Below are positions 2,620 to 34,247 of a DNA stretch of 57,725 bases, piece after piece. Position 1 is the first letter of the stretch. The number at the start of each line of letters is the position of its first letter. A program made the position numbers and the translations under genes. The notes beneath the pieces are model-generated. The model saw only the letters and a program-made list of their open reading frames with translations. It searched no databases and was not told the DNA's origin. The DNA comes from a virus (Duplodnaviria; Caudoviricetes): positions 1 to 57,725 of IMG/VR virus record IMGVR_UViG_3300034064_000874. One strand, 5' to 3'.

Positions 2620-2620
2620 T

Positions 2621-3061: not shown

Positions 3062-3072
3062 TATTAAAGGCA

Positions 3073-3456
3073 ATGAGCTTTGGTATGAGCGAGAAAAGTG
3101 ATGGCCCTGAAGTCACTTCAAAGGCTGAAGATCTTCTGCCGTGCCCATTCTGTGGAACCACAGAATTACTATCGGTTGAAGAAATCAGTCGAACCGACAG
3201 GGCCACATTCAATAAAAACGGAGTTCGTCGCAAACGCGCAGACATATCACATCGGGTTGTCTGCTACGAGTGTGGGGCTACGGGGCGTAGCAGCATATAT
3301 TTCCTAGAGCAAATAGAGCTTAGAGAGATAGATATTACTGACTCATTTGATACGGCAAAGCTCTATTGGAACACTCGAGCGCCAATCAGCAACCGAGTGT
3401 TTTCGCTGATAAATAAAATGATCGCTGACGCATTCAAGATTGTCGATGAGAGGTGA
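3073..3456 (+). CDS. Lar-like restriction alleviation zinc-finger protein
   Basis: LLPCPFCG...VVCYECGATG...WNTR pattern. Confidence 0.7.
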   Translation: MSFGMSEKSDGPEVTSKAEDLLPCPFCGTTELLSVEEISRTDRATFNKNGVRRKRADISHRVVCYECGATGRSSIYFLEQIELREIDITDSFDTAKLYWNTRAPISNRVFSLINKMIADAFKIVDER

Positions 3457-3504: not shown

Positions 3505-3993
3505 ATGAACGCGAAGAAGTTTGAAAGCACATACAACGGATTAACGTCAGTGGCCAAAAAAGTCTTTGACGCAACCCCGATTTCTGAGCCTTGGTCAATC
3601 AGCAACATTGTCACTGAGTTGGCGCGCAACGGATCTCATCAAGAACATCGCGTAGTGATGGGAGCCATGCGCGATTTGTGTGGGCGAAAGTTGGCTTATG
3701 AGGTGAGCGCTGGAATGTTCAGGCGCGTGAAAGTTGAGGGGAGGCCTACAAAACCATCGGAGATAAAAGTGGCAGAGCAAAGAACCAAAACAGCAGACGT
3801 AGTTTCAATCAAGCTGCCAGCAACCAAAAAAGGGCCAATGGAGCTTTTAGCCGAATTAGCCACAAAGGCACGACAGTTTGCAGAAGAACTCGATAACGCG
3901 GCGCTGGAGATTGATCAAGAGTTTCAGAACAGCGAAGCCAAGTCAGAAAAACTCAAGCAGCTACAGACACTGCTGAAAAACATCGCTGAATAA
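3505..3993 (+). CDS. Hypothetical protein (possible winged helix plus coiled coil)
   Basis: AAGGAG upstream; 162 aa. Confidence 0.7.
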   Translation: MNAKKFESTYNGLTSVAKKVFDATPISEPWSISNIVTELARNGSHQEHRVVMGAMRDLCGRKLAYEVSAGMFRRVKVEGRPTKPSEIKVAEQRTKTADVVSIKLPATKKGPMELLAELATKARQFAEELDNAALEIDQEFQNSEAKSEKLKQLQTLLKNIAE

Positions 3994-4004
3994 AATAGGT
4001 CAGT

Positions 4005-4274
4005 GTGATCAAGATTTTTGGACGGTGGTATATGGCAGAAAAACAAGAGCTGGTCACCTATGGCCAGAGATTCAATCGACTGACGGTCATTGGTGAAATT
4101 GATCGCTCTAATCCAAATGCGCCAAGGGTCGTCGTTAAGTGTGATTGCGGGGTAAAGAAGTCTGTCATCATCAATCAGATGAAAAACGGCAGAACAAAGA
4201 GCTGCGGATGCCTCAACAAGGAAAGGATCCGCGCAGTCAGCAATTTATCCTGGAATAGGAAACACAACCGATGA
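4005..4274 (+). CDS. Stand-alone Cys-rich domain like the N-terminus of phage HNH/AP2 endonucleases
   Basis: GQRFNRLTV...KCDCG...GRTKSCGC. Confidence 0.75.
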   Translation: MIKIFGRWYMAEKQELVTYGQRFNRLTVIGEIDRSNPNAPRVVVKCDCGVKKSVIINQMKNGRTKSCGCLNKERIRAVSNLSWNRKHNR

Positions 4275-5251
4275 TTGAAAAATTTATCCTGCATGGCGAC
4301 GCCACATACAACCTAGCGCCTTTTGCCTTCCCTTGGTCATTTGATATGGCTCAGAAGAGCATCGCAAACCACTGGACTCCACAGGAAATCGGCATGGGCC
4401 GCGACCGTGCCTGCTTTGAGCAGGAGTTAACCCAGGATGAACGCCATCTATTCACTTATGTGTTCGCCAGCTTAACCACAGCTGACTTTGCTGCAGCAGG
4501 AAATCTGGTTGAGCAGGTATTCAGCAAGCTGAAGGCCGCAGAACTCAGAATGTATGTCGGCCGACAGATTGCCGAAGAGACCATTCACTCGATGAGCTAT
4601 CAGCATATTCTCGAAGTGCTGAGCCTGGATCCTATTGACGTGTACACCTTGTATCGCAGGGTTCCAGAAATCAATGACTGGTTTGAATATTCGGCCAAGC
4701 AGAATTCATTTCAGCAGGGTGACGCCATCCTGCCGCTGATCTATTGGTATGGGCTGTATGAGGGCGTGTTCTTTATGTGCGCATTTGCAGCCATTTTGAG
4801 TCTCCAGCGCAGAAACTTGATGACCGGAACGGGTCAGCAAATTTCGTACATCATGCGTGATGAGGCCCTGCACACGGCATTCGGCATGAAACTGGTGAAT
4901 GAGATATTCAAGGAGACTGGAGGTCGTCCGACTCCAGAAACGGTCCACCAGTTATTTGCGCAGGCCATGGCCAAAATTGATGCCTGGACGGATCGCTGTA
5001 TACCCACCGTGCTTGGATATAACGCCGATCTTCATAAACAGCACTGCCGATACCTAGCAGACCGCAGGTTGCGCCAGCTTGGGTATGAGCCCATGTATCA
5101 CGTAGCAGAAGCGCTGCCGTGGCTGGACGAGCAAGTCAGCCTCAAGAAAGAAACCAATTTCTTTGAAGGCCGGGTCACCGAATATCAATCAGGAGTTGGG
5201 CTTGATTTTTCTGGCGCCGGCAGCCTGAACGAAATTACTAACTGGAAATAA
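4271..5251 (+). CDS. nrdB: Class I ribonucleotide reductase beta (R2) subunit
   Basis: NHWTPQEI; ligands D (TTAD), EETIH with radical Tyr (HSMSY), E (YEGVFF) and RDEALH; tail NFFEGRVTEYQ. Confidence 0.93.
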   Translation: MIEKFILHGDATYNLAPFAFPWSFDMAQKSIANHWTPQEIGMGRDRACFEQELTQDERHLFTYVFASLTTADFAAAGNLVEQVFSKLKAAELRMYVGRQIAEETIHSMSYQHILEVLSLDPIDVYTLYRRVPEINDWFEYSAKQNSFQQGDAILPLIYWYGLYEGVFFMCAFAAILSLQRRNLMTGTGQQISYIMRDEALHTAFGMKLVNEIFKETGGRPTPETVHQLFAQAMAKIDAWTDRCIPTVLGYNADLHKQHCRYLADRRLRQLGYEPMYHVAEALPWLDEQVSLKKETNFFEGRVTEYQSGVGLDFSGAGSLNEITNWK

Positions 5252-7630: not shown

Positions 7631-7895
7631 GGAAGTCGCTGAGTTTCTGCGCGTGTCACCAGCGACTGTGCGTGACTTGGCGAAGCGCGGAGAAATCCCC
7701 AGCGTTCGCCTTGGGGCGCTGTTTCGCTTTTCACGACCGGCCCTAATGCGGTATTTTGACGAGGCCGGGCAAGGCCAGGAGACAAGCACATGTCAGACCA
7801 TGGCATCTATAAAAGGCCGGACTCCCGCTACTGGTGGGCGGCCTACGCCGACGCCAGCGGCAAAGCGACTCGCCGCTCTACTGGGGTCCGAATAG
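7608..7895 (+). CDS. xis: Excisionase (MerR-type HTH)
   Basis: LLTPKEVAEFLRVSPATVRDLAKRGEIPSVRLG; immediately upstream of and overlapping int. Confidence 0.8.
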   Translation: MEPLLTPKEVAEFLRVSPATVRDLAKRGEIPSVRLGALFRFSRPALMRYFDEAGQGQETSTCQTMASIKGRTPATGGRPTPTPAAKRLAALLGSE

Positions 7896-8899
7896 ACCTA
7901 GACCCTCGGGGGACCGAGGCACGACGGGTGCGGCACGAATTCCTGATGGAAGTCGCGCCGCTTGAAGATAAACCCGCAGACCAATGGCTCTGGGAAGAGT
8001 TGGCAGAAGCCTATATCCCTGAGCTGAAGAAAGGAATCCGGCCCAGCACGTTCAATCGTTACAAGGCGGGCATGCGCGTCATGGCGGCGCGATTTTCAGG
8101 TACGCCAGCACTGACCACGGGGCCACAGGTAAAAGCCTGGATTCGTGACCAGGTGAATGCCGGGTATGCCGCCTCAACGATCAACATCAAGATCGCCATT
8201 ATGCAGGGCATGTATTCCTGGGCGATTAAAGAGTTGGACTGGGATATTCAGAATCCGTGGGCAAGCCGAAGTTTGTCGACGGACAATGAGCGCAATCGAT
8301 ACCTTTCGCAGGATGAAGTCGATCGGCTCATGGAATCCGCAAAGGAATGCGCCACGGCCTACTATCTGGTCGACTATCTGACGCTGGCATTGAATACCGG
8401 ATTCCGGCCGCAGGAGTTACTGAAAATGACCTGGGATAGGGTCAACCTGGAAGAGGGTACTTTTGTCTTTGAGAAACCCAAGGCAAAGAATGTGGCCGCC
8501 GATCAGAAGAATGGACGCTATTCCGTAATTCCGATCAACGCCAATGCCCGTCGCGCACTGATATCCCGAATGGAAACTCAGAAGCAGAACGCGGCTGCCA
8601 GTCGCTGGGTATTCAGTAATCGGGCAGGACACCGATTAAAGGATGTGGGATTTGCCTTCAGAGAGGCCGTAAAAAGAGCGGGACTGGAGGACGTTCAGCA
8701 GAGGGATCTGCGAAGGACGTTTGCTTCTCGGCTGGTGCAGGCAGAGGTGCCCCTGCAGGCAGTGTCAGAATTGCTCCGACACGCCGACATCAGGATCACC
8801 GATCGCGTGTATGCACACCTGTCGACGGAGCATTTGAAAGCCGCTGCGGCAGTGCTGGACACACCGCCGAAGCTGAAGGTGGTTTCACGTTCTAAGTGA
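7790..8899 (+). CDS. int: Tyrosine integrase
   Basis: LALNTGFRPQEL, RDLRRTFAS and LLRHADIRITDRVY motifs; N-terminal arm-binding-like region. Confidence 0.93.
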   Translation: MSDHGIYKRPDSRYWWAAYADASGKATRRSTGVRIDLDPRGTEARRVRHEFLMEVAPLEDKPADQWLWEELAEAYIPELKKGIRPSTFNRYKAGMRVMAARFSGTPALTTGPQVKAWIRDQVNAGYAASTINIKIAIMQGMYSWAIKELDWDIQNPWASRSLSTDNERNRYLSQDEVDRLMESAKECATAYYLVDYLTLALNTGFRPQELLKMTWDRVNLEEGTFVFEKPKAKNVAADQKNGRYSVIPINANARRALISRMETQKQNAAASRWVFSNRAGHRLKDVGFAFREAVKRAGLEDVQQRDLRRTFASRLVQAEVPLQAVSELLRHADIRITDRVYAHLSTEHLKAAAAVLDTPPKLKVVSRSK

Positions 8900-9167: not shown

Positions 9168-12100
9168 TTATCGGTTTACCTCCTTCACCCGATCATTCAG
9201 CACCTTCATCTGCGTCGCGATCTGACCATCCAGCGCCTTGATGGTCGCCTTGGGGGCATTCTGCGCGATGAGCTTGCGCTTCTTGGATCTCAGCTCAGAC
9301 ACGGCCCGCTCCATCTGATTACCGGCGGGCACCAGCGCGGCCAGCGGGTTTGAGCGCAGGAATCCAGCCACATCCTTGCCGTCCTTCGCCCGGCCTTTGA
9401 TCTCGCTCTCAAGCTCGTTGAGCCGGGTGAGATTGGCGTAGAAGCGATTCGATTCAGCCGACTGGCTTTTGACGTCACCGACGAACCGCCCTACCCCGAG
9501 CGGATACTTGTAGGGAGGGAGTTCCTCGCCGGTCATCCAGGCGGAAGCGGCCTGCTCGATCTTCATAACTTCCCTGCCCACGCCGCCCGTGGCCTGGCTG
9601 AACACGTAATCCAGCTGATCCGGCGTTGGGGAAAGCGCGCCCTGGGTATAGTCCGTGCCGCCCGTGATCCGGTTCAGTCCCCAGGCCAGTTGTTTCGACA
9701 GCCAGGACGCGGTGTCCTTGGTGCGAGTGAACCCTGGCGTGGGAGATGTTGAAGAGCGGTCCTTCTTGGCGATTTCCTTGCCGAATGAATCCCGGTTTTC
9801 TGACAATGCCACCAACGGATCCGCGAAAGTTGGAGCAATTGTCTGCACCGACCAGCCGGCCGATCCGATCGGGTTGAACGCATCGAAGAAGGATCCCAGC
9901 AAGCCGGCAATCTTCTTCCCGGCCCCATCCGGATTGATGGCGATCTCGGTCAGCACCCGCCCGGTATTGGGCAGCACATGAAAGCCCAGCGGCATGGGGA
10001 TGCTGACGTACTTGCCGTTCGGCATGGGGATGATGAAGTTGCGCTCGCGGAGGAATTCCGGTGGCTCGTCATCGTCATAGCCCGCCGCGGCCATGATGGC
10101 AGCCTGCACAACGCCCATGATCAGGCCGCCGGCGACAATCTTCTTCCCGGCCGGGCCTTTCACTGTTTCTGCGAGTCTGGCCGTGCCCTGAACCGCGGCA
10201 TTGAAGAACGCATACAGCGCTCCCGCCTGGCTGGCGATCTGGCCCTTGCGGTTGAAGTTGACGGTGAGCTCCTTGGCCATGACAGCCGCCTGCTCCTTGC
10301 TCATGCCGCTCTCGGTGCCGACCTTATAGGCCGACAGCCGCACGGCATTTTCCAGCGTCTCGTTGTAGTCGGATAGCCAGTCGAACAGGCCTCGGGTGAG
10401 TCGCTTGACCTTGCCGTCCTGGATGGCCTTGAGCTCCTTCTCCAGCGCCTTCATCCGATCATCCGCGGTGGCATACATATCCCGGTAACCGGTCTTGCCG
10501 CCGATGGACTGGAATTCTTCCCAGAGCTGCGACCATGCCGAGCCTTTCCTCGGCTTGCCCTTGCGGTCGGCCCGGAGATCGCCATAGATGCCCGCCATAG
10601 CCGGTGCGATCTTGGCTGCCACTTCCGTCTGCTTGCCGGCAATCGGTGTCGTGGAGAGGTTCAGCATCGCGCCTTGAGTATCGCGCAGCAGGTTGACGAC
10701 GCCGAAGATCGGGTTGTACTGGGTGTTGATGGAGCTGACGTAGCGCGTGATGTAACGGAACGCATTCAGCAGCCCGTGCATCTCTGGCGCATCCAGGTTC
10801 TTCAGCGACTGCGCCATCCGCACCGCCCGCTCGTTCTCGGTGGAGAAGAACAGGAATCGATCCTTGCCCTTGATCCGCACCGCCAACACGTTGTCGCGGT
10901 TTCTCAGTGCCGGATTGATCTTGTACTCGACCAGGCCGGTACGTGGATTGACGGAGGCCACAGTCGGCTCCTGGATGATTCCAGCCAGGTCTGACTCGAG
11001 CATGCCGTTATTGACCAGCTCCTGAGCGACCGAAGCCGGCTTCTTCACGGCATCCGGATTGACCGGATACCAGAACTCCGGATTCGGGTTCTGAATCGCC
11101 AGCCCATAGAGCGCCAGGCCGACCTTGTTTTTCTCGGCGCGTGTAATCGCTCGTTCACGCTGCATCATGACGTTGGCCAGGATATCGACCACGGCCTTGC
11201 CGGATCCAGTCCTGCGCTTGGAGGCGGGGCCCTTGGTGGAGAAGCCCTGCCCTGTGCCCATGCCGCGATTTAAGACATCTTCGCTCTCGCGCTGCAGCGG
11301 GACATAGTCAGCATAGGTCGCCTCCCAGGCGTCGATCGTGTCCTGGGTTTCCAGGCCGGAGTCCACCAGCAAGCGGCGAGTGCCGGCCGTGATGGCATCG
11401 ATCTGCGCAGCCATGGCCTCGAGGTCGGTGCGCTTCCCGGCGGGCAGATTGTTCAGGTAATCCTGAGCATCCTGGGTCAGTATCCCCGAGCCGCCGTCAG
11501 GGTAGGCTTCGTTGATGCGGGCGATCTGCTCATTGGCTTCCTTCGCATGGCGGTTGTGCAGGAATGTTTCCAGTTCGCCGATGGTGATGCCCCGGGTGGA
11601 CATGGCCCGCAGCAGCGGCTTGATCTCGTTCACCTTGAAATCATCCACGTCCTTCGCGGCCCGGCCGTGATAGAGGGTTTCCTTCAGGTAGGGATCCCAG
11701 GCATCAGACACCCGGCTGCCGAGCTTCTCGACGATCCGCTTGGTGTCGATGTGCTTGTCCTGCAGCAGGTAGACGTAGTTGTCCAGCTTGCTGTCGTCAG
11801 GCGTGGTCCAGGTGGCCAGCGCGGGCTGGTTGAGGACGTTGCGGCGGTTACTGAACAGCGGCATACCGTCCAGTGCTTTGTCCTGGAGAGCGGGCGTGAT
11901 ATCGAAGCCGGGTTGTGAGCTGTAGCGGCCTGATTCGGCTGCAGCGACTTGCTCGTCTGCCCAGGCTTGGGCTTGCTCGCGGGTGTCGAAGGTCTCGGCG
12001 CGTCTCGCCTCACCGGCGCCAACGCCGACCCGGAACCGGCCGCCGCTGGTCTCGTTGATCCGCACTACTAGGTCTTCCGGAGTGTCCGATAGGTCTTGCG

Positions 12101-15100
12101 CTGTGCTAATCGAGACCATCGACAGCCTCTGCCCGCCCAGCTTCTTCAGCACTTCATTGGCGGTCTGTGGAACGATCTGATCGTAGAATTTGCGCATGCC
12201 TTCGCCTCCGACTTTGAGGCCTTCGCCAGTAAAGCCGCCGGAATAAACGCCTCTGTCAATGCTTGACCGTATTTTGTCGCCAAGCTCCTTGCCTATGTAG
12301 TCGTCAACCTTGGTTGATGGCATGGTTTCATTGATGAGATAGTTGTTGTCAAACCCTTTGGCTTGCAGCAACACGTTATCCTTCTCTGTGTTTTCCCACG
12401 TTATGCCAGCAACCTGCTTGCTCAGGTCATACAAATCCGCATTCTGCTGCCCATTGGCAAAGGCGATCTTGTCGAAGCCGTTTTCACTTGCAAAGCGGAT
12501 GGCGCGCTTCAGTCCAAGCGACAGCCAGGACTTGGTGTCGGTGACGAAGGGGGCCTGTGGAATCGTGCCGTCAGTGCCGCCCAGGCCAGACTGATACAGC
12601 TCGATCAGTTGCTCATCTGACTGTCCGTAAGCCAAGTTGACTGAATAGCCACCTACCTGCTCGCCTGCCTCATTGCGTATGAAGACGGCGTCAGGGTCGG
12701 ATCGATCCACCGTAAATTGGCCGGATTTCTTGGTTGCGAATCCTCTTTTCTTCCCTTCCTGGCCCCAGTCCGATTGCAGCTCCTGGATAAACATCACCTT
12801 ATTGCCATCGGCATCGGTGCGCTCGTCGAAACGGAGGTGGGCTAGGACGTTCGGCTCGTTCCAGTGGGAGGATCGGTAGTTCTCTGCTTTCTTTTGCTCT
12901 CTTTCTGCCCGCGTGACTGCATTAGCGTCGTCGTCTTCCAGGTCAGAGAACCGACGGCCAAACATATCCTGCGCGATGTCGTTCAAATTACGAGGCTCTC
13001 GCTCTGGCAGCGTGATCAGCAGCTCCTGATAATTGGTGCCTCCAGGGATCGTGTAGCTGGCAAACTTTGGTGCAGCAGCGCCAACCTCTCCGCGCTCAGC
13101 CATCTCGTTTGCCAGTTCAGCAATACGGAAACGAGCTTGCGCTTGATCAGGCATACCATTCCGCTGGAAGCGCTGAGCGTCCTGCTCTGTTTCTCTTGCG
13201 ATCTCAAGCAGGCCATCAGTGGTGCTGGTGTCGCCGCCGTAATAGTCGACGTAGTCCTGCAGCTCTTTGGGTGGGGCCATCTTGCCGCCCTTCATCACCT
13301 CTTCCACGCGCACCCCGTTATCCGCCAGGTAGCTGGCAATATCGGCCTTGGTGAGCTTCTCTTTGGCATTGAGCGTCAGGTAATCCTCGATGCCGGTCCA
13401 AGCGATCTCGTCGTCCTTGATGCCCAGCTTGGCCTTATTACTGAACAGCCAGGCGCGCCACTGCGACCCGGGCATGGAGTTCATCTTGGATGACTCGAAG
13501 CCGCGAGCGAGCTGCGAGTAGAAGGTGGGATTTGGATTGCGCCGGTTGGAATAGAGGATTCCGTCCAGCGCGGGAGGGAGCTCGTTTAGTCCGACAGGAC
13601 CGCTGTCCCCTGCAGATTCAGCCAGTATTCCATCTCGGCCGCTTCCCCGCCTCTCGCCCGGCACTCGGCTGCCCGTCTCCCGTAGAAGGGATGCGAGGAG
13701 CGCCGCTCTTTTAAGCGTAGTGCGGCCCGGAGTCGACGGTCTTTCTCCTCCTGTGGGATTGGAGGTAGATTGTCCAAGTCTAGCCTTGGCCCCGGCCGAT
13801 AGATTTCTGAAGTCGTCATCTGTGAATACCTTCCCCGAGGAGATTTGTTCGAACTGCCTCGTCTTGAAATTGAATTGGATGTCATCTAGCCCTTCAACTC
13901 CAGCATACCCGGCCTCTCGATTTCCTTCAACGGCATTTCGATAGGATTTCTCGATCAATCGGTCCAGATTTCCGGCATCATCGCCCTCGATCCACTCGAT
14001 GTTTTGCAGTTCGTGCGGCTCCAGATGGCGCGTGGTTCCATACTTCAGTGCCGATGACAGCATCTGCTCGGTGCGACGAATCATGGCCTTCTTCGACAGC
14101 CCGTCAGGATCGCCTTTGAACACCAGCCCATTATTGTGAGCATAGGCGCCGATGATGCTATACAGCTCTGAGCCACGGCTCTTGCCAGACTCCAAGTTGG
14201 ATGCATCCACATAGAGCTTGTCGTCCGAGTCGGTTTTCACGAAAGCCGGGGATCCGTCTTCCATGATGATGGTCCAGTTGCGGCCATCGCGAGACGCCTT
14301 CACCTCGATATCCGGGTTAATGTCGTTGGCGATGTCCTGCATTGTCTTCGCATCTGACTTAGGCGACATGAACAACTGGTCAAACTTGGCCAGTTCGGTC
14401 AGCGTTTGCCTGGCACGGAGCTTGGTCGCCGTCGGGATGCGCCGGTTGCTGGCCGGGATGTCCACAGCAGCGCCTTTCTTCGCCCGGCTGGCCATCTCAT
14501 CCGGCCAGAACTTCTCGCTGGTGCCGGTGAATGAAGCCGCGTAGCGGTCGTAGAGGGATGGATTGATCGACTTGACGTACTCACCCCAGGCTTGCGGGGT
14601 TTTGCGCGACCAGTCCTTGCCCATGAGGCGAGCCAGGCGCTTGTTGGCGTTGGGCTCGGCGCGCTCACCGGGCTCAACCTGGGGACGGCCCTGGCCTTCA
14701 AATCGAACCGGGACTTTGTGATCGCCGATCAAAACCGCGGCACGTTGATTGCCGAAGTCAGCGACATAGCCATCGAAGCCGGCATCGATGACGGCGGATT
14801 CCATGTTGTTGTCGCGCTCTTCGGAATTGGCGCCCGTGATGTTCTCCGCAATGCTCAGCGGATCTGCATCAATATCGTAGAGATTCTTGAGCAGGACGGT
14901 GTGGGCATTGCCGCCGACACCCTGCTCAGGGGACACGCCTTGACCGGCGTTGATGTAGAAGTAGATTCGATTGGCGAGGCGCTGGTCAGCCGCGTTCTTG
15001 ACGCGCTCAGCCTCGGCACCGGTCGCCCCAGTGCCGTACTTGGATCCGTCTAGCTCTTTGCGTTCTGCGCTGGAGTAGTGGACGCCGACTGCGCGGACGC

Positions 15101-18100
15101 CGCCTCTTTTTGTTTGGCCATACCCCGGTCGGTCGCCCGCCGCAGAGCTGCTTCCAGCCCGTTCATTGCCGGGATCATTGGGTCGTCGGTTGCTGGCTGG
15201 GATGTCTGGTCCGACGGCTTCATCGAAGAGGCGGTCAGATTCGGCCTGTATGGCGTCAAAATCCCGCTTCCACCGAGGAATGTCTCGCCCGGCCTGGGAT
15301 CCCGCCGAGTCACTTTTGCCATATCGTGTGCCCTCTAAATAGCCTTCCAGCGTGTCAGGCTCGATCCAATCGGATCGGAACGTCGTGCTGGTGGTTTCAT
15401 ATTCAACATCAGATTCAATGCCACTGATAGCCGAATCTATGCCATCGTGAAAAGTCTGCTCGGCAACCTTCCCTTCAGAGAAGTTACCAAATACCAGAGA
15501 GCCGTCGCGGGTGGATACACCCTGCGCATCCGGATAACGCTGATTGATGACCCGGAAAAGATCAGCTTCTTCGGTGACCGAGAGCTTTTTACTCGGTATC
15601 ACCTTCACAAACTGGTTCTGGACGCCAGTCTGCTTGTCGTTCTCGTTGTAAGCGATCATAGCCTTCTGCTTCCACAGAAGACCCACGATTTTGGCAGCCT
15701 CTAGCTGCTGATCATAACTGACTGACTCGCCAAAGTGGATAGTGATGGACGGATTAACCAGTCCCTCAAATCCACCCATCGTGTACTCAAGGCGAAAGTC
15801 CGTGATGCCCAGCTTGTTGAGCACCTTTGGCAGCACGACATCACCGACCTTTCTGGTGACGCGCAGCTTGTCCTTGTAGGGGAGTCCGTCAAATTTAGCC
15901 GCCGCCCCCTGCGCACCCGCCTTTATGTAGTCCGGATTCGGCGCTAGTTCTGCGTTGACTCCGGAGTCTCGTCGGTTGCTGGCTGGGATGTCTGCTTGTC
16001 CAGCCCCGTTATCCTGTCGAACTCTTCCGCCGACACTATCATCTCCGGCGTCCAGCTTTCGTTGTCCGCCTCGAAATCCCGTTGCGGGTCCGATGGTTCC
16101 ACGGAAATCCCCTTTAGAAGCTCGGAGATTTCTTGCTGCGTTCGCGTAATCTGGGGCTTCATCTGGCTCATAATCTTCACCTTTATCTTCTTTGACCTTG
16201 GCGGCCTCGTACAGTCTCTTCTTTTCTGGATACCAGATCAATGCCTGGAAATCCGCCATAGTCAGCCGGTCGTGTACTTCCTGCAGGCGAGTCAGGGCAT
16301 CATTAAAGACGGCTCGGATGAACTTGCGCTGATTGACCCCTTTGGGCGCATCATTTAGGCCTTGCAGCTGGCGAACCAGGTTATTGCCTGCCTTGCGTAT
16401 TTCAGCACCCATATTGGTTCTGGCTTGCCCGCTGCGTGGCTCACCATAAATCTCAATGAACTGCTTAGGGTCGCGCTCACCAATTGGGTTCATGGCGTCG
16501 CGGTTTTCCGGTTTTTGACTGGCTCCGACAATCAGAGCGGCAGTACCGTCCAGGTCGCCTAACAGTAGCTTTCCGCCAATGATCTCTTGTAGGGAGCGAC
16601 GCTCTTGCGCGTCCAGCATACGAATGAGGGAATCCAGTGATTGGCGCTTTGCCTTAATAGCTGCTGGGTCGATGGTTACCAGGTCGCCAGTCCAGCGGTT
16701 CCATGTCCGCATGAACCAGCGATCCATGGTCAACTGCTCGTAGTGCCCGTAGAGGTTGGAGAAGAACCCGTTACCGATTTTTGGCCCCAAGATAATGGAA
16801 CCGTACACCATCTCGTCTTTTCCTTCGCCAGAAATGGTCTTGCCCGTTAACTGCTCGATCTCTCTGACTGGGCGCAGTGTGGTCATGAAGGACTGCAGCC
16901 TGTCATAACCCCACTTGTCCATGTACTCGTTGTAGGTCGCCAAGCCTTCATCGATCTTGGCTTTGGCCGGGCCTTCGCCGATATTCTCCGGCATGCGTCC
17001 GTGGACTCGCAGGTGCGCATACACCTTGTCGGCCAACTCAAAGTTACGGTCAACCTTCATGCCGTTGGAGGTGACAGCCAGCGCCCAGATAAACCCGAAT
17101 CTGGCCTGCGGATCATCGCGCAACTCAAGGTAGATCTCGCCCATGATATCCATGGCGACCGTGAGCTTTCCGTCGTACCAGCCGATGGCGCTGGAGTTCG
17201 TCTTGAGGGCTTCCTGAGCCTCTCGTATGGCAATGCCGACCAAGTAATCGTAGGTGGACTGATCCTTGGCCTTGAGGTCGACACCGGCGGCCTTCGCTAC
17301 CCTATTGATGCGGCGATCTAGCTCAACCCTCAAATCCCTGCCGGTTTTCCACTGGCGCGACTTGGCCAGATCCACTGCGGCATTGATGAAGTTGATTTCT
17401 TCCAGGGTGGCCGGGATGACCCGCTTATTGGTCGGCTCGCTGTCAAACCCCTTGGCGGCCAGGGTGTTTTTCTCAGCGCGGCGGTCTGCCTTTTCACGCT
17501 CCTTTTCGGCCTTTTGCCGCTCACGTTCTTGAGCTTTCTCTGCTTTCTCTTCTTCCGTCAGGCGTTTCTTGCTCTCCAGAATCTCCGGCCCGTCGAACTC
17601 AGGTTCAGTGCCGGTCTGCTGGGCGTTAGCGTACTGAGCGAGAGCCTCTGTGACGGCGTTACGGGCGCGCTGTAGATCCTTCTTGGCAATGGCGGCTTCG
17701 GCGTTGAATCCGGCGCCCTGGAGCTTCTGAATCAGCCCACTCATGAACCCATCCACGGCCCGCAGGAACTTGCCGCCGGAACCCGGGCGCTGCTTGTTCA
17801 TGGCCACGGCAACACGGAACAGGGCGGTGGGCTTGTGGATCACGTCCGACACAAAGTCGGAAACCCACTCTTCCTCATTGCGGCTGGGATCGGTGAGACC
17901 TGGATAGGCGCTGATCGTGTCGCCTTTCTTCGGAAGCTCCTGCTCGTAGTTGCGTTCACCCAGGTGCATGGACACGCCGATCGGGCTGTACACCTCGCGC
18001 AGCGCCGTCACCATGTCGGCATAGATCTTGGGTGCCCGACGACGCAGGCCATGGGTCAGCTCATGAGCGACGACCCGAGAGAAGGTATCTTGAGAATTCT

Positions 18101-21029
18101 TGTTGAGGAGGATTACATCGGGCCGGGATCCGATGATGGCGCCGTCTCGGTCGAGCTCGGTGGTTCCGTCTTCGTGCTCGATGTAGACGACACGGTGGCC
18201 GAATACCTGCGCAATAGACTCAGCAATTCGTCGTTGCACAAATCCGCGACGGGGCAGCGCGGTTGCGGTTTTGATCTTCTGGAGAAGTACGCCTCCACTA
18301 TCTCCAGCTCCTCCGGCGTTAAGGGTGTCAACTGCTGTGTTGTATTCGTCGATGACATCTTGGTCGTTCGCCTTCGTGTTGCTGGCCGCAATATCGGATT
18401 GTACGCCCTGGCTTGCAAGATACTGCTCCGGCGTAATCAGCGGCTGGCCCAGCTGCTTCTGCACGGCGTTCTGGCCGCGCAGCTCACTCTCCTGCTTGGC
18501 GGTCAGTTGAGTCGGCAAAGATTTGTTGCCAGCTGGCCTGGATACACCCTTGATCGTCCGTCTAACCGGAAGCGGCAGCTGATCCCAGTTCTGACTTTTG
18601 ATCTCCGGCATCTCGAGCTCTTCAGCCCAGACGGATTTACCGGCTTCGTCCAGGGTGTCCCAGTAGTCCTTGGTGTTCTGCTCGGGCTGACGCTCTAGTG
18701 CAGGCTCGCTGACAGGATTGTTGGCCGTTGATGCAGTGGTAGTTGCTCCGACATTTCCATCAGCTGATCCACCCTCAAGTCGATCTCGTCCATCAACAGT
18801 GCCAATTCCAGCTCCTCCTTCTGCTCCCTGAGCGAGAGCACTTCCTGCTGCAGTTCCTGGAGCAATTTCTCCAGTGCCTGCCGTGGGATCATTGGCATTG
18901 GGATTCTCCGTGGTGCCGGCGCTTACCTGCCCGCCGGCTGGCATAGGAATAGATCCGGGCGCTTGGCCCGGAAGGTTTAGCAGCCCTTCTTGCCCGGACG
19001 TCCCGGCATTGGCTTCTTGGTTTTGCCCTTCATTGGTGGTCTCCTGAGTGGCGGTGGTAGTTTCTCGATCAGCATTGAGCTGATCCAGGGCTTCAAACGC
19101 ATCCACGTCGGTCGGATGCTGGCTGATGACGGTCCCGGTGTTGGTATCAACAATCTGGAACTCGTTGTCAGAGACTTGCCGGATCTCCGGCGCGATATCG
19201 GTTACCTGCGGCCCTTGGGCGGCATCGACGGCTTGGGATTGCCCTTCTTGGATGGGGGCTTGGGTTGTTCCTGTTGGTTCTGCAGGCGCCGTACTTGCGC
19301 CAGCGGGATCTTGGGCATTGGTGTCTCCTGGAATGCCGGTGGATGAAATGGAGGTGTCTTCGGCTTGGTCTCGCTCAGCCGGCATCGTCGCGGCCGCAGC
19401 AAGACGCCGAGCCATGATGTCGCGGGCCTGCTTGGCGCGCTCAATTCCAGAGAGTCCTGGGTCGGTCTCGGTCTTCAGAATCTCCATGAACATGGGATTC
19501 TTGTTGTAGAGCGACTCGATCTTGTTTTCGGATGACCAGCGTTTGGCCGCCACATCAGCTGCCTTTCCAAGCAGCACCTGGCCGCCGGTTCCGACCAACG
19601 TGGCAACAGCCGTCTGTATCGCTGCAGACGGACGCTCGGCCATGAATTCCTTGGCGGTCTTGTCTGGGTTCAGCTCAACCCACTTATCGAGATCCTGCAG
19701 GAATGTGGCGGCTTGCTCGCCCAGCATTTCTGGAACCAGCTGCTTGGCAAAGGTTTTCCAGAGGGCGTCATTGGCCTTCAAGCTGCCCAGCAACTTGCCC
19801 ATCGGGATAGTCTCAGTGCCGACCTCGATAATGCCCTGGGTTGTCCCGTAGAGTGCAGCTCGCTCCGGGCTTTTGCCGGCATCACGCGCTTCTCCATAGG
19901 ACTGACCACCCGACATGACGCCCATCGGGGCCAGCGCCATCAGCGGATTGCCAGTGACAACAGCCGCCGGGATCGTCATCAGATTCTGGGTGATCGACTG
20001 CATACCGGAGTACACGCCAGATGCCAGATCGCTGTCGGCCTGTGGGGTGAGTCGCTCGGCAATCGTCTTTTGCCCCTGACGCGCCTTACTGTAGGTCTGC
20101 GCCAGTTGCTGGACCGGATCCTGCACACCAAAAGCGTTGAATACGGGTCCGGTCAGATATTTGTTTGTGGCTTCGGCGCCGGCTTGCAAAGTACCAAGGA
20201 CGCCTTCACTGCCCCGATAAACACCGGACAGCGCAGCGGATCCAAGGTTCTTGGCGGCCTGGCCCGGGTTGTTGACCACGCTTTTCGGGTCCATCACCTG
20301 GTTGTAGGCGAAGTCCTCCACCGCATTGCCGGCGTCGCTGATTAGGTTCTTGCCGCGCTGTAGCAGGGACGGCGGTTGTGCGGGAGGCTCGGCGGGCGCT
20401 GAGACAGCTTCCTGCTGGCTCGAAAATGGAACCTCTGCGGCATCTGCTTCGGTGAAGATCTTCATGCCGCCATCAGAAGGCGAGGCATCCGACGTAACAC
20501 CACCATTCCACGCCGCCAGAATCTGCCGAGCATTTCGCCGACGCGCTCCTAAAGCAGGGACTCCAGGACGCTCGAAACCAGACATGTCGCCTGGTTGCCC
20601 CATGAAATTGGTGGTCGCCTGATCAAGGCTGCCAGACCGCTTCAGCGTCTCGAAAGCCGGCCTCTCGCTGGTCAATAACTCCTGCTTGAGGAACTGAAAG
20701 TTGGCATCATCAGACGCTGGGTCGAGATTGTTCGCCTTAACAAACTCCTCAAACTGACGACGACGCGGACCTGTCCACTGGGCCCATCCAAATCCACCAC
20801 GACCACTGACAGGCTTGATCTCCTGCATCTGCTTGAATCCACCGGACTCATGCCACAGGTTGCCCATAACCCCGGCCGCTTGCTCTGGAGTCATCCGCAA
20901 ATCCGGATCATCGATCAGGCGCTGAACACCCGACAGGGCAATATCCATGCTCGAACGGCGCTCGGGCTTGGCATCAGCCAAAGAGGGACCGGCCGATACC
21001 TGATTACCGTCTTCGTCGAATGCCAACAT
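9168..21029 (-). CDS. Giant polyvalent internal virion/ejection protein (3953 aa): tail-lysozyme, zincin, HhH-like, ART-like, GNAT-like and LPD38-like domains
   Basis: AAGVMGNLWHESGG...GWAQWT lysozyme; HELTH; GPKIG...TMDRW...QALIW; HYS...YFY; G.RGSELY; C-terminal IPMPLG...FNPIG...SPTPDQLDY; last gene of the virion operon. Confidence 0.88.
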   Translation of the reverse strand: MLAFDEDGNQVSAGPSLADAKPERRSSMDIALSGVQRLIDDPDLRMTPEQAAGVMGNLWHESGGFKQMQEIKPVSGRGGFGWAQWTGPRRRQFEEFVKANNLDPASDDANFQFLKQELLTSERPAFETLKRSGSLDQATTNFMGQPGDMSGFERPGVPALGARRRNARQILAAWNGGVTSDASPSDGGMKIFTEADAAEVPFSSQQEAVSAPAEPPAQPPSLLQRGKNLISDAGNAVEDFAYNQVMDPKSVVNNPGQAAKNLGSAALSGVYRGSEGVLGTLQAGAEATNKYLTGPVFNAFGVQDPVQQLAQTYSKARQGQKTIAERLTPQADSDLASGVYSGMQSITQNLMTIPAAVVTGNPLMALAPMGVMSGGQSYGEARDAGKSPERAALYGTTQGIIEVGTETIPMGKLLGSLKANDALWKTFAKQLVPEMLGEQAATFLQDLDKWVELNPDKTAKEFMAERPSAAIQTAVATLVGTGGQVLLGKAADVAAKRWSSENKIESLYNKNPMFMEILKTETDPGLSGIERAKQARDIMARRLAAAATMPAERDQAEDTSISSTGIPGDTNAQDPAGASTAPAEPTGTTQAPIQEGQSQAVDAAQGPQVTDIAPEIRQVSDNEFQIVDTNTGTVISQHPTDVDAFEALDQLNADRETTTATQETTNEGQNQEANAGTSGQEGLLNLPGQAPGSIPMPAGGQVSAGTTENPNANDPTAGTGEIAPGTAAGSALAQGAEGGAGIGTVDGRDRLEGGSADGNVGATTTASTANNPVSEPALERQPEQNTKDYWDTLDEAGKSVWAEELEMPEIKSQNWDQLPLPVRRTIKGVSRPAGNKSLPTQLTAKQESELRGQNAVQKQLGQPLITPEQYLASQGVQSDIAASNTKANDQDVIDEYNTAVDTLNAGGAGDSGGVLLQKIKTATALPRRGFVQRRIAESIAQVFGHRVVYIEHEDGTTELDRDGAIIGSRPDVILLNKNSQDTFSRVVAHELTHGLRRRAPKIYADMVTALREVYSPIGVSMHLGERNYEQELPKKGDTISAYPGLTDPSRNEEEWVSDFVSDVIHKPTALFRVAVAMNKQRPGSGGKFLRAVDGFMSGLIQKLQGAGFNAEAAIAKKDLQRARNAVTEALAQYANAQQTGTEPEFDGPEILESKKRLTEEEKAEKAQERERQKAEKEREKADRRAEKNTLAAKGFDSEPTNKRVIPATLEEINFINAAVDLAKSRQWKTGRDLRVELDRRINRVAKAAGVDLKAKDQSTYDYLVGIAIREAQEALKTNSSAIGWYDGKLTVAMDIMGEIYLELRDDPQARFGFIWALAVTSNGMKVDRNFELADKVYAHLRVHGRMPENIGEGPAKAKIDEGLATYNEYMDKWGYDRLQSFMTTLRPVREIEQLTGKTISGEGKDEMVYGSIILGPKIGNGFFSNLYGHYEQLTMDRWFMRTWNRWTGDLVTIDPAAIKAKRQSLDSLIRMLDAQERRSLQEIIGGKLLLGDLDGTAALIVGASQKPENRDAMNPIGERDPKQFIEIYGEPRSGQARTNMGAEIRKAGNNLVRQLQGLNDAPKGVNQRKFIRAVFNDALTRLQEVHDRLTMADFQALIWYPEKKRLYEAAKVKEDKGEDYEPDEAPDYANAARNLRASKGDFRGTIGPATGFRGGQRKLDAGDDSVGGRVRQDNGAGQADIPASNRRDSGVNAELAPNPDYIKAGAQGAAAKFDGLPYKDKLRVTRKVGDVVLPKVLNKLGITDFRLEYTMGGFEGLVNPSITIHFGESVSYDQQLEAAKIVGLLWKQKAMIAYNENDKQTGVQNQFVKVIPSKKLSVTEEADLFRVINQRYPDAQGVSTRDGSLVFGNFSEGKVAEQTFHDGIDSAISGIESDVEYETTSTTFRSDWIEPDTLEGYLEGTRYGKSDSAGSQAGRDIPRWKRDFDAIQAESDRLFDEAVGPDIPASNRRPNDPGNERAGSSSAAGDRPGYGQTKRGGVRAVGVHYSSAERKELDGSKYGTGATGAEAERVKNAADQRLANRIYFYINAGQGVSPEQGVGGNAHTVLLKNLYDIDADPLSIAENITGANSEERDNNMESAVIDAGFDGYVADFGNQRAAVLIGDHKVPVRFEGQGRPQVEPGERAEPNANKRLARLMGKDWSRKTPQAWGEYVKSINPSLYDRYAASFTGTSEKFWPDEMASRAKKGAAVDIPASNRRIPTATKLRARQTLTELAKFDQLFMSPKSDAKTMQDIANDINPDIEVKASRDGRNWTIIMEDGSPAFVKTDSDDKLYVDASNLESGKSRGSELYSIIGAYAHNNGLVFKGDPDGLSKKAMIRRTEQMLSSALKYGTTRHLEPHELQNIEWIEGDDAGNLDRLIEKSYRNAVEGNREAGYAGVEGLDDIQFNFKTRQFEQISSGKVFTDDDFRNLSAGAKARLGQSTSNPTGGERPSTPGRTTLKRAALLASLLRETGSRVPGERRGSGRDGILAESAGDSGPVGLNELPPALDGILYSNRRNPNPTFYSQLARGFESSKMNSMPGSQWRAWLFSNKAKLGIKDDEIAWTGIEDYLTLNAKEKLTKADIASYLADNGVRVEEVMKGGKMAPPKELQDYVDYYGGDTSTTDGLLEIARETEQDAQRFQRNGMPDQAQARFRIAELANEMAERGEVGAAAPKFASYTIPGGTNYQELLITLPEREPRNLNDIAQDMFGRRFSDLEDDDANAVTRAEREQKKAENYRSSHWNEPNVLAHLRFDERTDADGNKVMFIQELQSDWGQEGKKRGFATKKSGQFTVDRSDPDAVFIRNEAGEQVGGYSVNLAYGQSDEQLIELYQSGLGGTDGTIPQAPFVTDTKSWLSLGLKRAIRFASENGFDKIAFANGQQNADLYDLSKQVAGITWENTEKDNVLLQAKGFDNNYLINETMPSTKVDDYIGKELGDKIRSSIDRGVYSGGFTGEGLKVGGEGMRKFYDQIVPQTANEVLKKLGGQRLSMVSISTAQDLSDTPEDLVVRINETSGGRFRVGVGAGEARRAETFDTREQAQAWADEQVAAAESGRYSSQPGFDITPALQDKALDGMPLFSNRRNVLNQPALATWTTPDDSKLDNYVYLLQDKHIDTKRIVEKLGSRVSDAWDPYLKETLYHGRAAKDVDDFKVNEIKPLLRAMSTRGITIGELETFLHNRHAKEANEQIARINEAYPDGGSGILTQDAQDYLNNLPAGKRTDLEAMAAQIDAITAGTRRLLVDSGLETQDTIDAWEATYADYVPLQRESEDVLNRGMGTGQGFSTKGPASKRRTGSGKAVVDILANVMMQRERAITRAEKNKVGLALYGLAIQNPNPEFWYPVNPDAVKKPASVAQELVNNGMLESDLAGIIQEPTVASVNPRTGLVEYKINPALRNRDNVLAVRIKGKDRFLFFSTENERAVRMAQSLKNLDAPEMHGLLNAFRYITRYVSSINTQYNPIFGVVNLLRDTQGAMLNLSTTPIAGKQTEVAAKIAPAMAGIYGDLRADRKGKPRKGSAWSQLWEEFQSIGGKTGYRDMYATADDRMKALEKELKAIQDGKVKRLTRGLFDWLSDYNETLENAVRLSAYKVGTESGMSKEQAAVMAKELTVNFNRKGQIASQAGALYAFFNAAVQGTARLAETVKGPAGKKIVAGGLIMGVVQAAIMAAAGYDDDEPPEFLRERNFIIPMPNGKYVSIPMPLGFHVLPNTGRVLTEIAINPDGAGKKIAGLLGSFFDAFNPIGSAGWSVQTIAPTFADPLVALSENRDSFGKEIAKKDRSSTSPTPGFTRTKDTASWLSKQLAWGLNRITGGTDYTQGALSPTPDQLDYVFSQATGGVGREVMKIEQAASAWMTGEELPPYKYPLGVGRFVGDVKSQSAESNRFYANLTRLNELESEIKGRAKDGKDVAGFLRSNPLAALVPAGNQMERAVSELRSKKRKLIAQNAPKATIKALDGQIATQMKVLNDRVKEVNR
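13586..13819 (-). CDS. Nested +1-frame ORF (77 aa, MTTSEIYRPGPRLDLDNLPPIPQEEKDRRLRAALRLK...)
   Basis: GGAAGGT about 8 nt before ATG; protein-like sequence over a G/R-rich linker of the host gene. Confidence 0.5.
   Translation of the reverse strand: MTTSEIYRPGPRLDLDNLPPIPQEEKDRRLRAALRLKERRSSHPFYGRRAAECRARGGEAAEMEYWLNLQGTAVLSD
15050..15322 (-). CDS. Nested +1-frame ORF (90 aa, MAKVTRRDPRPGETFLGG...)
   Basis: AGAGGG RBS about 8 nt before ATG. Confidence 0.55.
   Translation of the reverse strand: MAKVTRRDPRPGETFLGGSGILTPYRPNLTASSMKPSDQTSQPATDDPMIPAMNGLEAALRRATDRGMAKQKEAASAQSASTTPAQNAKS
15944..16171 (-). CDS. Nested +1-frame acidic ORF (75 aa, MSQMKPQITRTQQEISELLKG...)
   Basis: AAGGTG 6 nt before ATG; acidic, helical-looking sequence. 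Confidence 0.5.
   Translation of the reverse strand: MSQMKPQITRTQQEISELLKGISVEPSDPQRDFEADNESWTPEMIVSAEEFDRITGLDKQTSQPATDETPESTQN
18113..18358 (-). CDS. Nested +1-frame ORF (81 aa, MSSTNTTQQLTPLTPEELEIVEAYFSRR...)
   Basis: Protein-like N-terminal half; weak RBS (AAGG 12 nt upstream). Confidence 0.4.
   Translation of the reverse strand: MSSTNTTQQLTPLTPEELEIVEAYFSRRSKPQPRCPVADLCNDELLSLLRRYSATVSSTSSTKTEPPSSTETAPSSDPGPM
18695..18898 (-). CDS. Nested +1-frame acidic coiled-coil ORF (67 aa, MPMIPRQALEKLLQELQQE...)
   Basis: GGAG-N7-ATG; strong heptad pattern. Confidence 0.62.
   Translation of the reverse strand: MPMIPRQALEKLLQELQQEVLSLREQKEELELALLMDEIDLRVDQLMEMSEQLPLHQRPTILSASLH
18977..19033 (-). 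CDS. Nested +1-frame basic peptide MKGKTKKPMPGRPGKKGC
   Basis: CAGGAG-N7-ATG; TAA stop. Confidence 0.55.
   Translation of the reverse strand: MKGKTKKPMPGRPGKKGC
19202..19318 (-). CDS. Nested +1-frame basic peptide MPKIPLAQVRRLQNQQEQPKPPSKKGNPKPSMPPKGRR
   Basis: CAGGAG-N6-ATG. Confidence 0.55.
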   Translation of the reverse strand: MPKIPLAQVRRLQNQQEQPKPPSKKGNPKPSMPPKGRR

Positions 21030-34141: not shown

Positions 34142-34247
34142 GCTAAAATACCCTCGCGTAGATAGGCTTAGCGGCTGAACGCGGGAACTCAATCACCCCG
34201 TTTCTACGCGCTCTCCAGTGATTGTTCACCAAGATTGAGGTGATGAG

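Follow-up and report, generated by a model that had tools for sequence, protein, structure and literature searches.

A linker in a giant phage polyvalent protein gene probably carries a cassette of nested genes in its +1 frame

Introduction

Can one gene of a tailed phage hide further genes in a second reading frame of the same strand? The question is raised by a 57,725-nucleotide stretch of viral DNA (Duplodnaviria; Caudoviricetes; IMG/VR record IMGVR_UViG_3300034064_000874), which we call the window. Within a giant minus-strand ORF at 9168..21029, an initial annotation had singled out seven +1 ATGs, at 19318, 19033, 18898, 18358, 16171, 15322 and 13819, and read them as a hidden layer of separately translated small proteins. 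All seven ATGs are where it placed them and in the +1 frame; they open peptides of 38, 18, 67, 81, 75, 90 and 77 aa, each lying wholly inside the giant gene in a different frame of the same strand. The six Shine-Dalgarno (SD)-like strings that it quoted (CAGGAG, CAGGAG, GGAG, AAGGTG, AGAGGG and GGAAGGT) are likewise found 6-8 nt upstream of their starts. Here we refer to the first three ORFs as ORF1, ORF2 and ORF3 and to the others by their ATG positions. Substitutions among homologs, together with conserved starts, SD motifs and stops, argue for a separately initiated coding layer at ORF1, ORF2 and ORF3, and the idea is not supported for 18358, 16171, 15322 and 13819.

Results

The host gene encodes a 3953-aa phage large polyvalent protein, as judged from the ORF list, its translation and Pfam, which places Phage_lysozyme2 at residues 46-171 (E 1.7e-21), LPD37 at 2209-2451 (E 1.7e-53) and LPD38 at 3653-3844 (E 5.6e-38). 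It is giant, multidomain and furnished with LPD-type domains, and its LPD37, LPD38 and lysozyme domains are of the class described for large polyvalent proteins of phages and conjugative elements (Iyer et al. 2017, PMC5512222). Unlike the host gene here, those proteins are not described as having a second reading frame in their linkers in the available part of that paper, where "overlapping" has 0 occurrences and "nested" has 2, both for a hairpin fold. As to the metallopeptidase (MPTase) domain for self-processing, an HExxH motif lies near host residue 989, with no Pfam peptidase family at E 0.01. Homologous giant proteins range from 2211 to 5724 aa and have shuffled modules, and module exchange within the giant gene occurs at repeated linker motifs (contig joints; SNRR repeats).

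Homologous DNA was obtained from three other sources (L001, L081 and L085), making four DNAs with the window, in two clades (window with L081, and L001 with L085). Beyond these, a 1963-aa host segment found no relatives among viral contigs, P0023 and P0024 as queries against viral contigs added no new contig, blastn of a 6-kb region against phage records gave just 8 weak, partial matches, and tblastn with host residues ~1561-2011 gave distant matches only (27-49%).

The case for nested genes centers on ORF3 (18695..18898, minus strand), which encodes an acidic protein of 67 aa. Its ATG, stop and SD-like motif are retained in all four DNAs, the motif being GGAG in the window (18906..18909, 7 nt upstream of the ATG) and in L081, and AAGGG in L001. 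Across the six pairs of the four DNAs, which are not independent because they form two clades, dN/dS (NG86) over ORF3 is 0.19-0.35 in the +1 frame and 1.21-3.55 in the host frame, which here behaves like an off-frame. Between the window and L001, 21 changes are silent in +1 only and 6 in the host frame only, versus 11 and 108 in a control domain (Fisher p 2e-12); the corresponding counts for L081 are 13 and 2, versus 13 and 52 (p 2e-6). Among all possible single changes in ORF3, the two silent classes number 134 and 164. Variable columns are distributed 30/24/12 by host codon position, and the ATG and stop are kept despite codon-family switches for Leu and Arg (TTG to CTG, AGG to CGG). The same pattern is seen in population variants from contigs of four runs in four studies: among the 40 differences listed (632 more exist), all six within ORF3 change the host residue, five of them being silent in +1 and one replacing Met with Val, and 26 of the 34 outside ORF3 fall at host third positions.

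Frame-wise conservation identifies the same region. Wherever blocks of the giant gene could be aligned, the host frame is the best conserved, the exception being host residues 554-778 in L001, with +1 ahead in 4 of 25 blocks. In block 711-778, identity to L001 is 0.75 for nucleotides and, for amino acids, 0.47 in frame 0, 0.70 in +1 and 0.45 in +2; of the six frames, 0 and +1 alone are open. Identity to L085 at the nucleotide level is 0.35-0.49 in the flanking host domain, 0.78 in the ORF1 start region and 0.70 in ORF3. In homologs available as protein only, MAFFT-based alignment indicates that ORF3 is encodable at 65/68 codons in P0002, 67/68 in P0003 and 62/67 in P0006; P0002 and P0003 can also encode the start and stop, and the stop of P0006 is unaligned. 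P0005 (25/57 over ORF3, 34% identical there) was left out of this evidence. The conservation and silent-site checks suggested by the initial annotation favor the +1 frame at ORF3, and, judging from these substitution patterns, that frame is under purifying selection.

AlphaFold2 predicts ORF3 to be one helix spanning residues 6-51 (pLDDT 86.4). The helix is amphipathic, with Leu at 9, 16, 23 and 30 in heptad spacing, and is followed by a conserved, proline-containing C-terminal tail. The expectation that the +1 frame would read as ordinary helical protein was thus borne out for this ORF only, the other peptides being low-complexity strings rich in P, K, R, S and T. A homodimer prediction for ORF3 scored 0.05, a value that we count neither for nor against dimerization. 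Related proteins were called independently in metagenome protein sets, 11 in all (32-69 aa, in three subfamilies); the ORF3 family itself comprises 66-69-aa proteins from freshwater and other metagenomes, and its divergent subfamilies retain the Leu heptads at 33-40% identity. The called proteins sit on short contigs (507-3831 nt), and gene callers may have picked them merely for their better +1 codon usage, which likewise led to calls at ORF 16171, an unsupported one.

No long protein carrying ORF3 in frame was found among 1.84 billion representatives, the sole long match (1303 aa, E 6.7e-4) being judged a chance one; the grouping of P0027 (382 aa) with P0022 is a clustering artefact, P0027 being protease-like and unrelated. 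An ORF3-family HMM run against six-frame ORFs of 84 loci plus the window recovered only the window and two already known contigs, one of which appears as three loci. A tblastn search with the nested peptide, as the initial annotation had proposed, returned no match to ORF3 at E up to 1 in 50,697 phage records. Pfam and PHROGs gave nothing below E 0.03 for six nested peptides, and the ESM Atlas gave no match at 0.9 or above.

Upstream of ORF3 lie ORF1 (19202..19318, minus strand), a basic, Pro/Lys-rich peptide of 38 aa that is a probable nested gene, and ORF2 (18977..19033, minus strand), a very basic peptide of 18 aa that is a possible nested gene or leader peptide. Each has a GGAG, at 19325..19328 (6 nt upstream of the ORF1 ATG, with motif and spacing as at real gene starts of this phage) and at 19041..19044 (7 nt upstream of the ORF2 ATG). 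Taken together, ORF1-ORF3 have their own start signals in all four DNAs, each ATG being preceded at 6-8 nt by GGAG or AAGGG, as at real phage starts. Retention in 4/4 DNAs extends to the ATG and CCAGGAG of ORF1 and to the ATG, CAGGAG and TAA of ORF2, and in L001 the ORF2 TAA abuts the ORF3 ATG.

It could be argued that ORF3 alone is a gene and that ORF1 and ORF2 are by-products, mirroring host motifs or nucleotide conservation near ORF3. Only the N-terminal 13 aa of ORF1 are conserved, its C-terminal two thirds being variable and its body swapped both in L081 and in contigs from runs X5 and X8 (joint 19225 to 19311); ORF2 is just 16-18 aa long and overlies a host-frame motif conserved in 6/6 aligned proteins. 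The codon-usage log-odds of both are small (+5.7 and +1.3), and with 105 +1 stops in 3953 codons, it is not unusual for +1 to stay open over 45 codons. Against this reading, the properly spaced GGAG and ATG of both ORFs are retained throughout the four DNAs, and where L081 has replaced the host sequence under ORF1, its +1 frame is still open and basic with the same start and end. Substitutions point the same way: in the first 13 codons of ORF1, all 5 differences between the window and L001 are silent in +1 and non-silent in the host frame, as are 3/3 ORF1 differences between L001 and L085, and of the 5 ORF2 differences between L001 and L085, 4 are silent in just the +1 frame, 1 alters both proteins and 0 are silent in just the host frame. 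Over both ORFs, 13 differences are informative; 12 of these change the host residue and leave the +1 residue as it was, with 0 the other way, a bias resting on 3-5 substitutions per comparison. On balance we consider it unlikely that ORF3 stands alone.

A broader reading is that of the initial annotation, in which all seven ORFs are separately translated and giant-gene linkers in general hold a second coding layer. In its favor, when 117 +1 ATG contexts are ranked by structure, each of the seven start regions falls in the less structured third, and codon usage, scored as log-odds of +1 over frame 0 after training on 26 other ORFs of the window, prefers +1 in six of seven: ORF3 (+16.7), 16171 (+14.4), 13819 (+7.0) and 15322 (+4.1), besides ORF1 and ORF2. 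The claim of an atypical host frame beneath a gene-like +1 frame stands to that extent and fails for 18358 (-11.6); three further long +1 ORFs score -20 to -44. That the seven share a frame is trivial, with 118 ATGs in +1 versus 3 in +2, because xAT|Gxx codon pairs are common.

The codon-shuffling null model that the initial annotation had called for does not place the seven ORFs as a set above chance. In 1000 synonymous shuffles, 7.9 +/- 1.9 +1 ORFs of at least 60 aa were expected and 7 are observed, the longest being 99 aa versus 164 +/- 39 in the null. Strict SD+ATG combinations in +1 number 12 versus 9.0 +/- 2.7 (null fraction reaching it 0.18), and loose ones 27 versus 19.3 +/- 3.7 (0.027). 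A core SD is nevertheless scarce, preceding only 12 of 117 +1 ATGs, and the three neighboring starts of ORF1-ORF3 are among these, a point in favor of the cassette.

Individually, too, the remaining four look like chance +1 ORFs by sequence comparison. ORF 18358 (18113..18358, minus strand, 81 aa) lies inside the HExxH domain without a core SD, and in L081 the host frame there is identical at 82/83 positions, versus 5 changes in +1. ORF 16171 (15944..16171, minus strand, 75 aa) has gene-like codon usage and lacks conservation in its closest homologs: P0002, the nearest homologous protein, is compatible with it at 13/36 informative sites versus a background of 0.49 and has three linker indels, and the values are 15/27 in P0003, 13/50 in P0008 and 24/68 in P0016. 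For ORF 15322 (15050..15322, minus strand, 90 aa), the 3' half in L082 shows 13 changes silent in the host only, 13 in +1 only and 13 non-silent in both, and compatibility is near background (P0003 26/46, P0004 23/44). ORF 13819 (13586..13819, minus strand, 77 aa, or 99 aa from an ATG at 13885) has 2 +1 stops in the L082 span, which is not alignable there (host identity 12/34); its compatibility in P0002 (12/19) and P0014 (41/62, against a background of 0.47), the latter a point in favor of all seven, is weak and falls in a degenerate G/R/A/L-rich stretch. The rejection of 16171, 15322 and 13819 rests mainly on such protein-level compatibility, a weak test that lacks the power to show a frame to be open and gives inflated values where Arg, Leu, Ser and Gly abound; none of the 40 population differences listed falls in these three.

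Two called proteins, from contigs of <1 kb, do look like 16171 and 15322 as read in +1 (70-76% identity), but off-frames show this same identity at ~85% nucleotide identity. Gene-like codon usage among the four rejected ORFs is explained by the Gly/Arg/Asp/Ser-rich composition of the host linkers. We therefore regard a general second coding layer as very improbable.

The stretch that carries ORF1-ORF3 is a low-complexity linker (18678..19349, minus strand; host residues ~561-784) that is open and in phase in all homologs. Its length is 219 codons in the window, 306 in L081 and 185 in L001, each a multiple of three, and its indels fall between the ORFs, with none within ORF2 or ORF3. Stops in frames 0/+1/+2 number 0/4/9 in the window, 0/4/13 in L081 and 0/3/11 in L001. 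Because the host frame stays open and in phase throughout, the linker appears dual-coding on sequence grounds. A scan of 18500-19700 for promoters and terminators found 0 sites.

One could instead suppose that the linker is not truly dual-coding, either because these are separate genes with an accidentally open frame 0 or because the giant protein frameshifts into +1. Frame 0 under ORF3 indeed lacks amino-acid constraint, with conservation no better than that of +2 in block 711-778, and when ORF3 is back-translated with the codon preferences of the phage, the host frame is open by chance in 926 of 5000 trials (18.5%), a share small enough to count also as evidence that the frame is maintained. 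Set against this are the complete lack of frame-0 stops in a linker of 185-306 codons in three DNAs, versus 9-13 in +2, length differences that are all multiples of three, and a motif between ORF1 and ORF2 that is conserved in frame 0 (block 636-652, 0.41 vs 0.19). For a frameshift detour, entry into +1 would be needed beyond a stop that in L001 directly adjoins the ATG, and exit ahead of a conserved stop; nor was a long protein with ORF3 in frame found among the representatives searched. Both versions seem highly unlikely to us. Least credible is the proposal that none of the ORFs is a gene and that linker conservation is nucleotide-level, reflecting RNA structure or a recombination site for module exchange: exchange at linker motifs and the better conservation of the L085 cassette than of its flanks fit it, but changes concentrate at third positions of one frame, +1 dN/dS is low, start and stop outlast the codon-family switches, and divergent subfamilies keep their heptads.

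Discussion

We propose that host residues ~561-784 are probably dual-coding, with a +1 cassette of ORF1, ORF2 and ORF3, and that the other four ORFs arose by chance. In this scheme the giant gene would encode a virion-type polyvalent protein, one disordered linker of which doubles as a three-gene cassette in a frame set one base downstream. Because each ORF has a GGAG 6-7 nt before its ATG, as ordinary phage genes do, internal initiation on the long mRNA is the most likely mode of expression, and ORF1-ORF3 would be translated independently from the giant gene's own message. ORF3 would form the core of the cassette, acting as an oligomer or docking on a partner. The host frame across the cassette would serve as a flexible tether whose amino acids drift, provided only that it is kept open and in phase. 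Our best guess is that the cassette provides a helper made in the producing cell beside the giant protein, for its assembly, packaging or neutralization.

A close known parallel is Rz/Rz1 of phage lambda, in which Rz1 is embedded in the +1 frame of Rz with its own SD and ATG, both being made from one mRNA. As here, the larger phage gene contains the whole of the small one, on the same strand and in +1. The resemblance does not extend to the products: Rz1, an o-spanin, is a lipoprotein with a signal peptide and lipobox Cys, whereas ORF3 lacks Cys and a hydrophobic leader, and ORF1 and ORF2 are also without such a leader. The settings differ as well, Rz being a lysis gene with one nested ORF and the host here a virion polyvalent protein gene with three in a row.

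In overprinted viral gene pairs, one of the two products is usually disordered. Overprinted genes are described, in the portions of the literature available to us, for phiX174-type phages (B in A, K in A/C, E in D) and for eukaryotic viruses (PMC8227390, PMC3494269, PMC6195259). As in phiX174-type overprinting, one frame here is constrained and the other is low-complexity or disordered, with an apparent dN/dS >1 in the less constrained frame. Unlike the cases described there, it is the small nested frame that is constrained and typical of the genome, as the log-odds of ORF3 indicate, and the disordered product is a tether in a 3953-aa protein of a ~58-kb tailed phage rather than part of a size-limited virus. 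On this comparative evidence the cassette would be a newly recognized case of same-strand nested genes, and the idea of a hidden gene layer is partly supported.

Our analysis has consequences for gene annotation. Gene callers forbid long same-strand overlaps, and for this reason nested genes in large phage genomes are almost unrecorded. Comparative sequence data alone can part three real candidates from four look-alikes within one gene. A note of caution is that gene-like codon usage in Gly/Arg/Asp-rich linkers is insufficient to call a nested gene. Because replacing the ATG by ACG does not alter the host protein (AAT to AAC), nested translation and function would be separable from the host protein.

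A far-reaching extension, which we hold to be improbable, is that the polycationic ORF1 and ORF2 and the acidic zipper of ORF3, made in the infected cell and sharing their mRNA with the injected giant protein, might act on that protein as a packaging chaperone, neutralizer or release timer. Polyvalent linkers would then form a second coding layer, the cassette would move between giant genes with unrelated flanks, and younger +1 ORFs restricted to one lineage, like 16171, might be the same process caught early. More immediately, the cassette suggests that the disordered tether of a virion-delivered giant protein can hide a conserved family of small proteins.

Results

The giant minus-strand ORF at 9168-21029 (3953 aa) contains Pfam domains Phage_lysozyme2 (residues 46-171), LPD37 (2209-2451) and LPD38 (3653-3844), and because of this combination we assign it to the phage large polyvalent proteins, in the sense of Iyer et al. 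2017 (PMC5512222). Nearby genes have PHROG matches to an internal virion protein (31757-34192), tail-fibre proteins, an integrase (7790-8899) and a lone RNR small subunit (4271-5251), and the window is therefore from a temperate tailed phage, with the giant gene as the last gene of the virion module. An xxxSNRR motif repeats at domain boundaries of the giant protein, at 15945-15968, 15159-15182, 14415-14438, 13536-13547 and 11838-11849 (residues 1684, 1946, 2194, 2494 and 3060); three copies read DIPASNRR, and the first two have a long identical nucleotide stretch in common. Joints spanning these motifs occur in contigs of other sequencing runs (X5, 13548 to 14439; X8, 13550 to 14438; X9, 15191 to 15973), which suggests loss or exchange of modules at the linkers; alternatively, the HExxH domain could process the protein at this motif.

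The initial annotation proposed a hidden layer of seven genes nested in the +1 frame of the giant gene. All seven ATGs (19318, 19033, 18898, 18358, 16171, 15322 and 13819) are present in that frame, opening peptides of 38, 18, 67, 81, 75, 90 and 77 aa, and the Shine-Dalgarno-like (SD) strings quoted for them occur as claimed. Their common frame is uninformative, since xAT|Gxx codon pairs produce 118 ATGs in +1 versus 3 in +2. Nor are the seven unusual as a set when compared with 1000 synonymous shuffles of the giant gene: +1 ORFs of at least 60 aa number 7 (7.9 +/- 1.9 in shuffles), the longest reaches 99 aa (164 +/- 39 aa), and strict SD plus ATG combinations number 12 (9.0 +/- 2.7). In the same shuffles, +1 ATGs are in excess (118 vs 102 +/- 6; 0.003), +1 stops are depleted (105 vs 122), and a single open run in +2 is unusually long, at 197 codons (125 +/- 26 in shuffles; 0.017). 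The contention that the +1 frame is more gene-like than the host frame was borne out in six of the seven by codon-usage log-odds trained on the 26 other ORFs of the window; the same score strongly rejects +1 in three other long +1 ORFs. Twelve of 117 +1 ATGs follow a core SD, three of them being the starts of ORF1 (19202-19318), ORF2 (18977-19033) and ORF3 (18695-18898), whose GGAG-ATG arrangement resembles the real gene starts of this phage.

Homologous DNA was available from IMG/VR (L001; host residues 22-778 and 2482-3358), two JGI metagenome sequences (L081, residues 1 to about 1448; L082, 1949-2197 and 2449-3869) and a contig of a lake MAG (L085; the linker and parts of both gene ends). 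In gapless blocks the host frame is best conserved, with +1 similar to +2, everywhere except residues 554-778, where +1 is best conserved in 4 of 25 L001 blocks and the antisense frames are interrupted by stops. Block 711-778 has a nucleotide identity of 0.75 to L001; when translated, it is 0.70 identical in +1, against 0.47 in frame 0 and 0.45 in +2. In L085, nucleotide identity is 0.35-0.49 in the flanking host domain, 0.78 in the ORF1 start region and 0.70 in ORF3.

Substitutions in ORF3 predominantly spare the nested frame. Changes silent only in +1 versus only in the host frame number 21 and 6 against L001 and 13 and 2 against L081, compared with 11 and 108, and 13 and 52, in control domains (Fisher p = 2e-12 and 2e-6), and the possible single changes in ORF3 are roughly even (134 vs 164). 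Across the six pairs of four DNAs, dN/dS (NG86) is 0.19-0.35 in +1, as expected of purifying selection on a nested gene, and 1.2-3.6 in the host frame; ORF3 thus bears the classic overlap signature, with the nested frame as the constrained one. Among the variants listed from contigs of four sequencing runs, which belong to four studies (632 further differences lie outside these), all six in ORF3 alter the host residue and five are silent in +1, as switches between Leu or Arg codon families or at the third base of an Ala codon; outside ORF3, 26 of 34 fall at host third positions.

The ATG, stop and SD-like motif of ORF3 are conserved in all four DNAs, large indels fall 5' or 3' of it rather than inside, and in L001 the ORF2 stop directly adjoins its ATG. 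Profile and word searches (1.84 billion representatives and 5.8 billion proteins) returned 11 called proteins, 32-69 aa long, and no credible long protein with the ORF3 sequence in frame. The 11 form three subfamilies, and the Leu heptads and a tail with Pro persist among them at identities as low as 33%. One ORF3 homolog (P0022, 56 aa) shares a 90% cluster with a 382-aa protease-like protein (P0027), evidently a database clustering artefact. Giant-protein homologs represented by protein alone could encode ORF3 at 65/68 (P0002), 67/68 (P0003) and 62/67 (P0006) codons, a measure of compatibility.

ORF1 and ORF2 likewise retain ATG, GGAG and stop in 4/4 DNAs. Differences silent in +1 only account for 5/5 informative ones in ORF1 between the window and L001, 3/3 in ORF1 between L001 and L085, and 4/5 in ORF2 between L001 and L085, the fifth being non-silent in both frames; these few changes include no case that is silent in the host frame alone. 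Towards its C-terminus ORF1 is variable, and this part is replaced in L081. In the population, both ends of ORF1 are constant and its middle varies: its body is swapped in X5 and X8 contigs (joint 19225 to 19311, affecting 19226-19310), and 3-nt insertions lie just 3' of its stop, at 19198-19200. From these patterns, ORF1 and ORF2 are probable, not certain, nested genes.

The remaining four candidates did not hold up. ORF 18358 lies within the HExxH domain, where L081 is identical at 82/83 host residues and has five changes in +1. ORF 16171 has the second-best codon score of the seven; in P0002, the closest homolog of the giant protein (81% overall), three indels interrupt this stretch and just 13/36 informative sites are compatible. 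For ORF 15322, the 3' half in L082 gives 13 changes silent in the host frame only, 13 in +1 only and 13 in neither, and compatibility in P0003 and P0004 is at background. At ORF 13819, L082 is non-homologous with two +1 stops, and P0014 is compatible at 41/62, mildly above background, in a degenerate stretch. P0037 and P0038, called on contigs of less than 1 kb, are fusions whose N-terminus matches that of the 15322 peptide and whose body matches the 16171 peptide (70-76% identity), so that two host modules are adjacent in those phages and +1 is open for 114-126 aa; this identity is that of an off-frame at about 85% nucleotide identity, and these protein records are not decisive for or against either ORF. 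Of the proposed hidden layer, then, substitution patterns uphold ORF3 and, as probable, ORF1 and ORF2.

Discussion

It might be asked whether the host frame over the cassette is itself an artefact. This was ruled out by the absence of host-frame stops (3-4 in +1, 9-13 in +2) and the constant phase of linkers of 219, 306 and 185 codons in the window, L081 and L001; moreover, back-translating ORF3 with phage codon usage leaves that frame open in no more than 926 of 5000 trials. Because the host frame is kept open and in phase, and frame 0 conserves a short motif that lies between ORF1 and ORF2, the linker is dual-coding, and the host product over the cassette is predicted to be an unconstrained tether. 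ORF3 uses codons in the manner typical of the genome, which suggests that its frame came first and that the tether was overprinted later. Extra linker inserts in homologs bear further +1 ORFs: a very basic one of 66 aa with GGAGGGAG ahead of its ATG (L081:5792-5992), and a basic one of 62 aa beginning two codons past the ORF3 stop (L085:8208-8399). Their common stretch, just 48 nt at 85% identity, is too short for a selection test.

Nested genes such as Rz1 in Rz and B in A of phiX174 are well known, and the cassette resembles them as a kind. Unlike the spanin Rz1, the cassette ORFs have no lipobox and are therefore not spanins. What is new here is the three-ORF cassette and its small-protein family in a polyvalent-protein linker; no report of nested ORFs in such a linker was found in the part of the literature searched, and the accessible portion of PMC5512222 does not mention overlapping frames.

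We found no promoter-like site within 18500-19700; the simplest route to ORF1-3 would be internal initiation on late mRNA. No family or Atlas lead to a function of the nested peptides was found. AlphaFold2 predicts ORF3 as a single helix (residues 6-51, pLDDT 86), and an isolated amphipathic helix of 46 residues with a conserved tail suggests, at the level of a model, oligomerisation or partner docking. Our guess, made with low confidence, is that ORF3 may assist the giant protein inside the cell that produces it.
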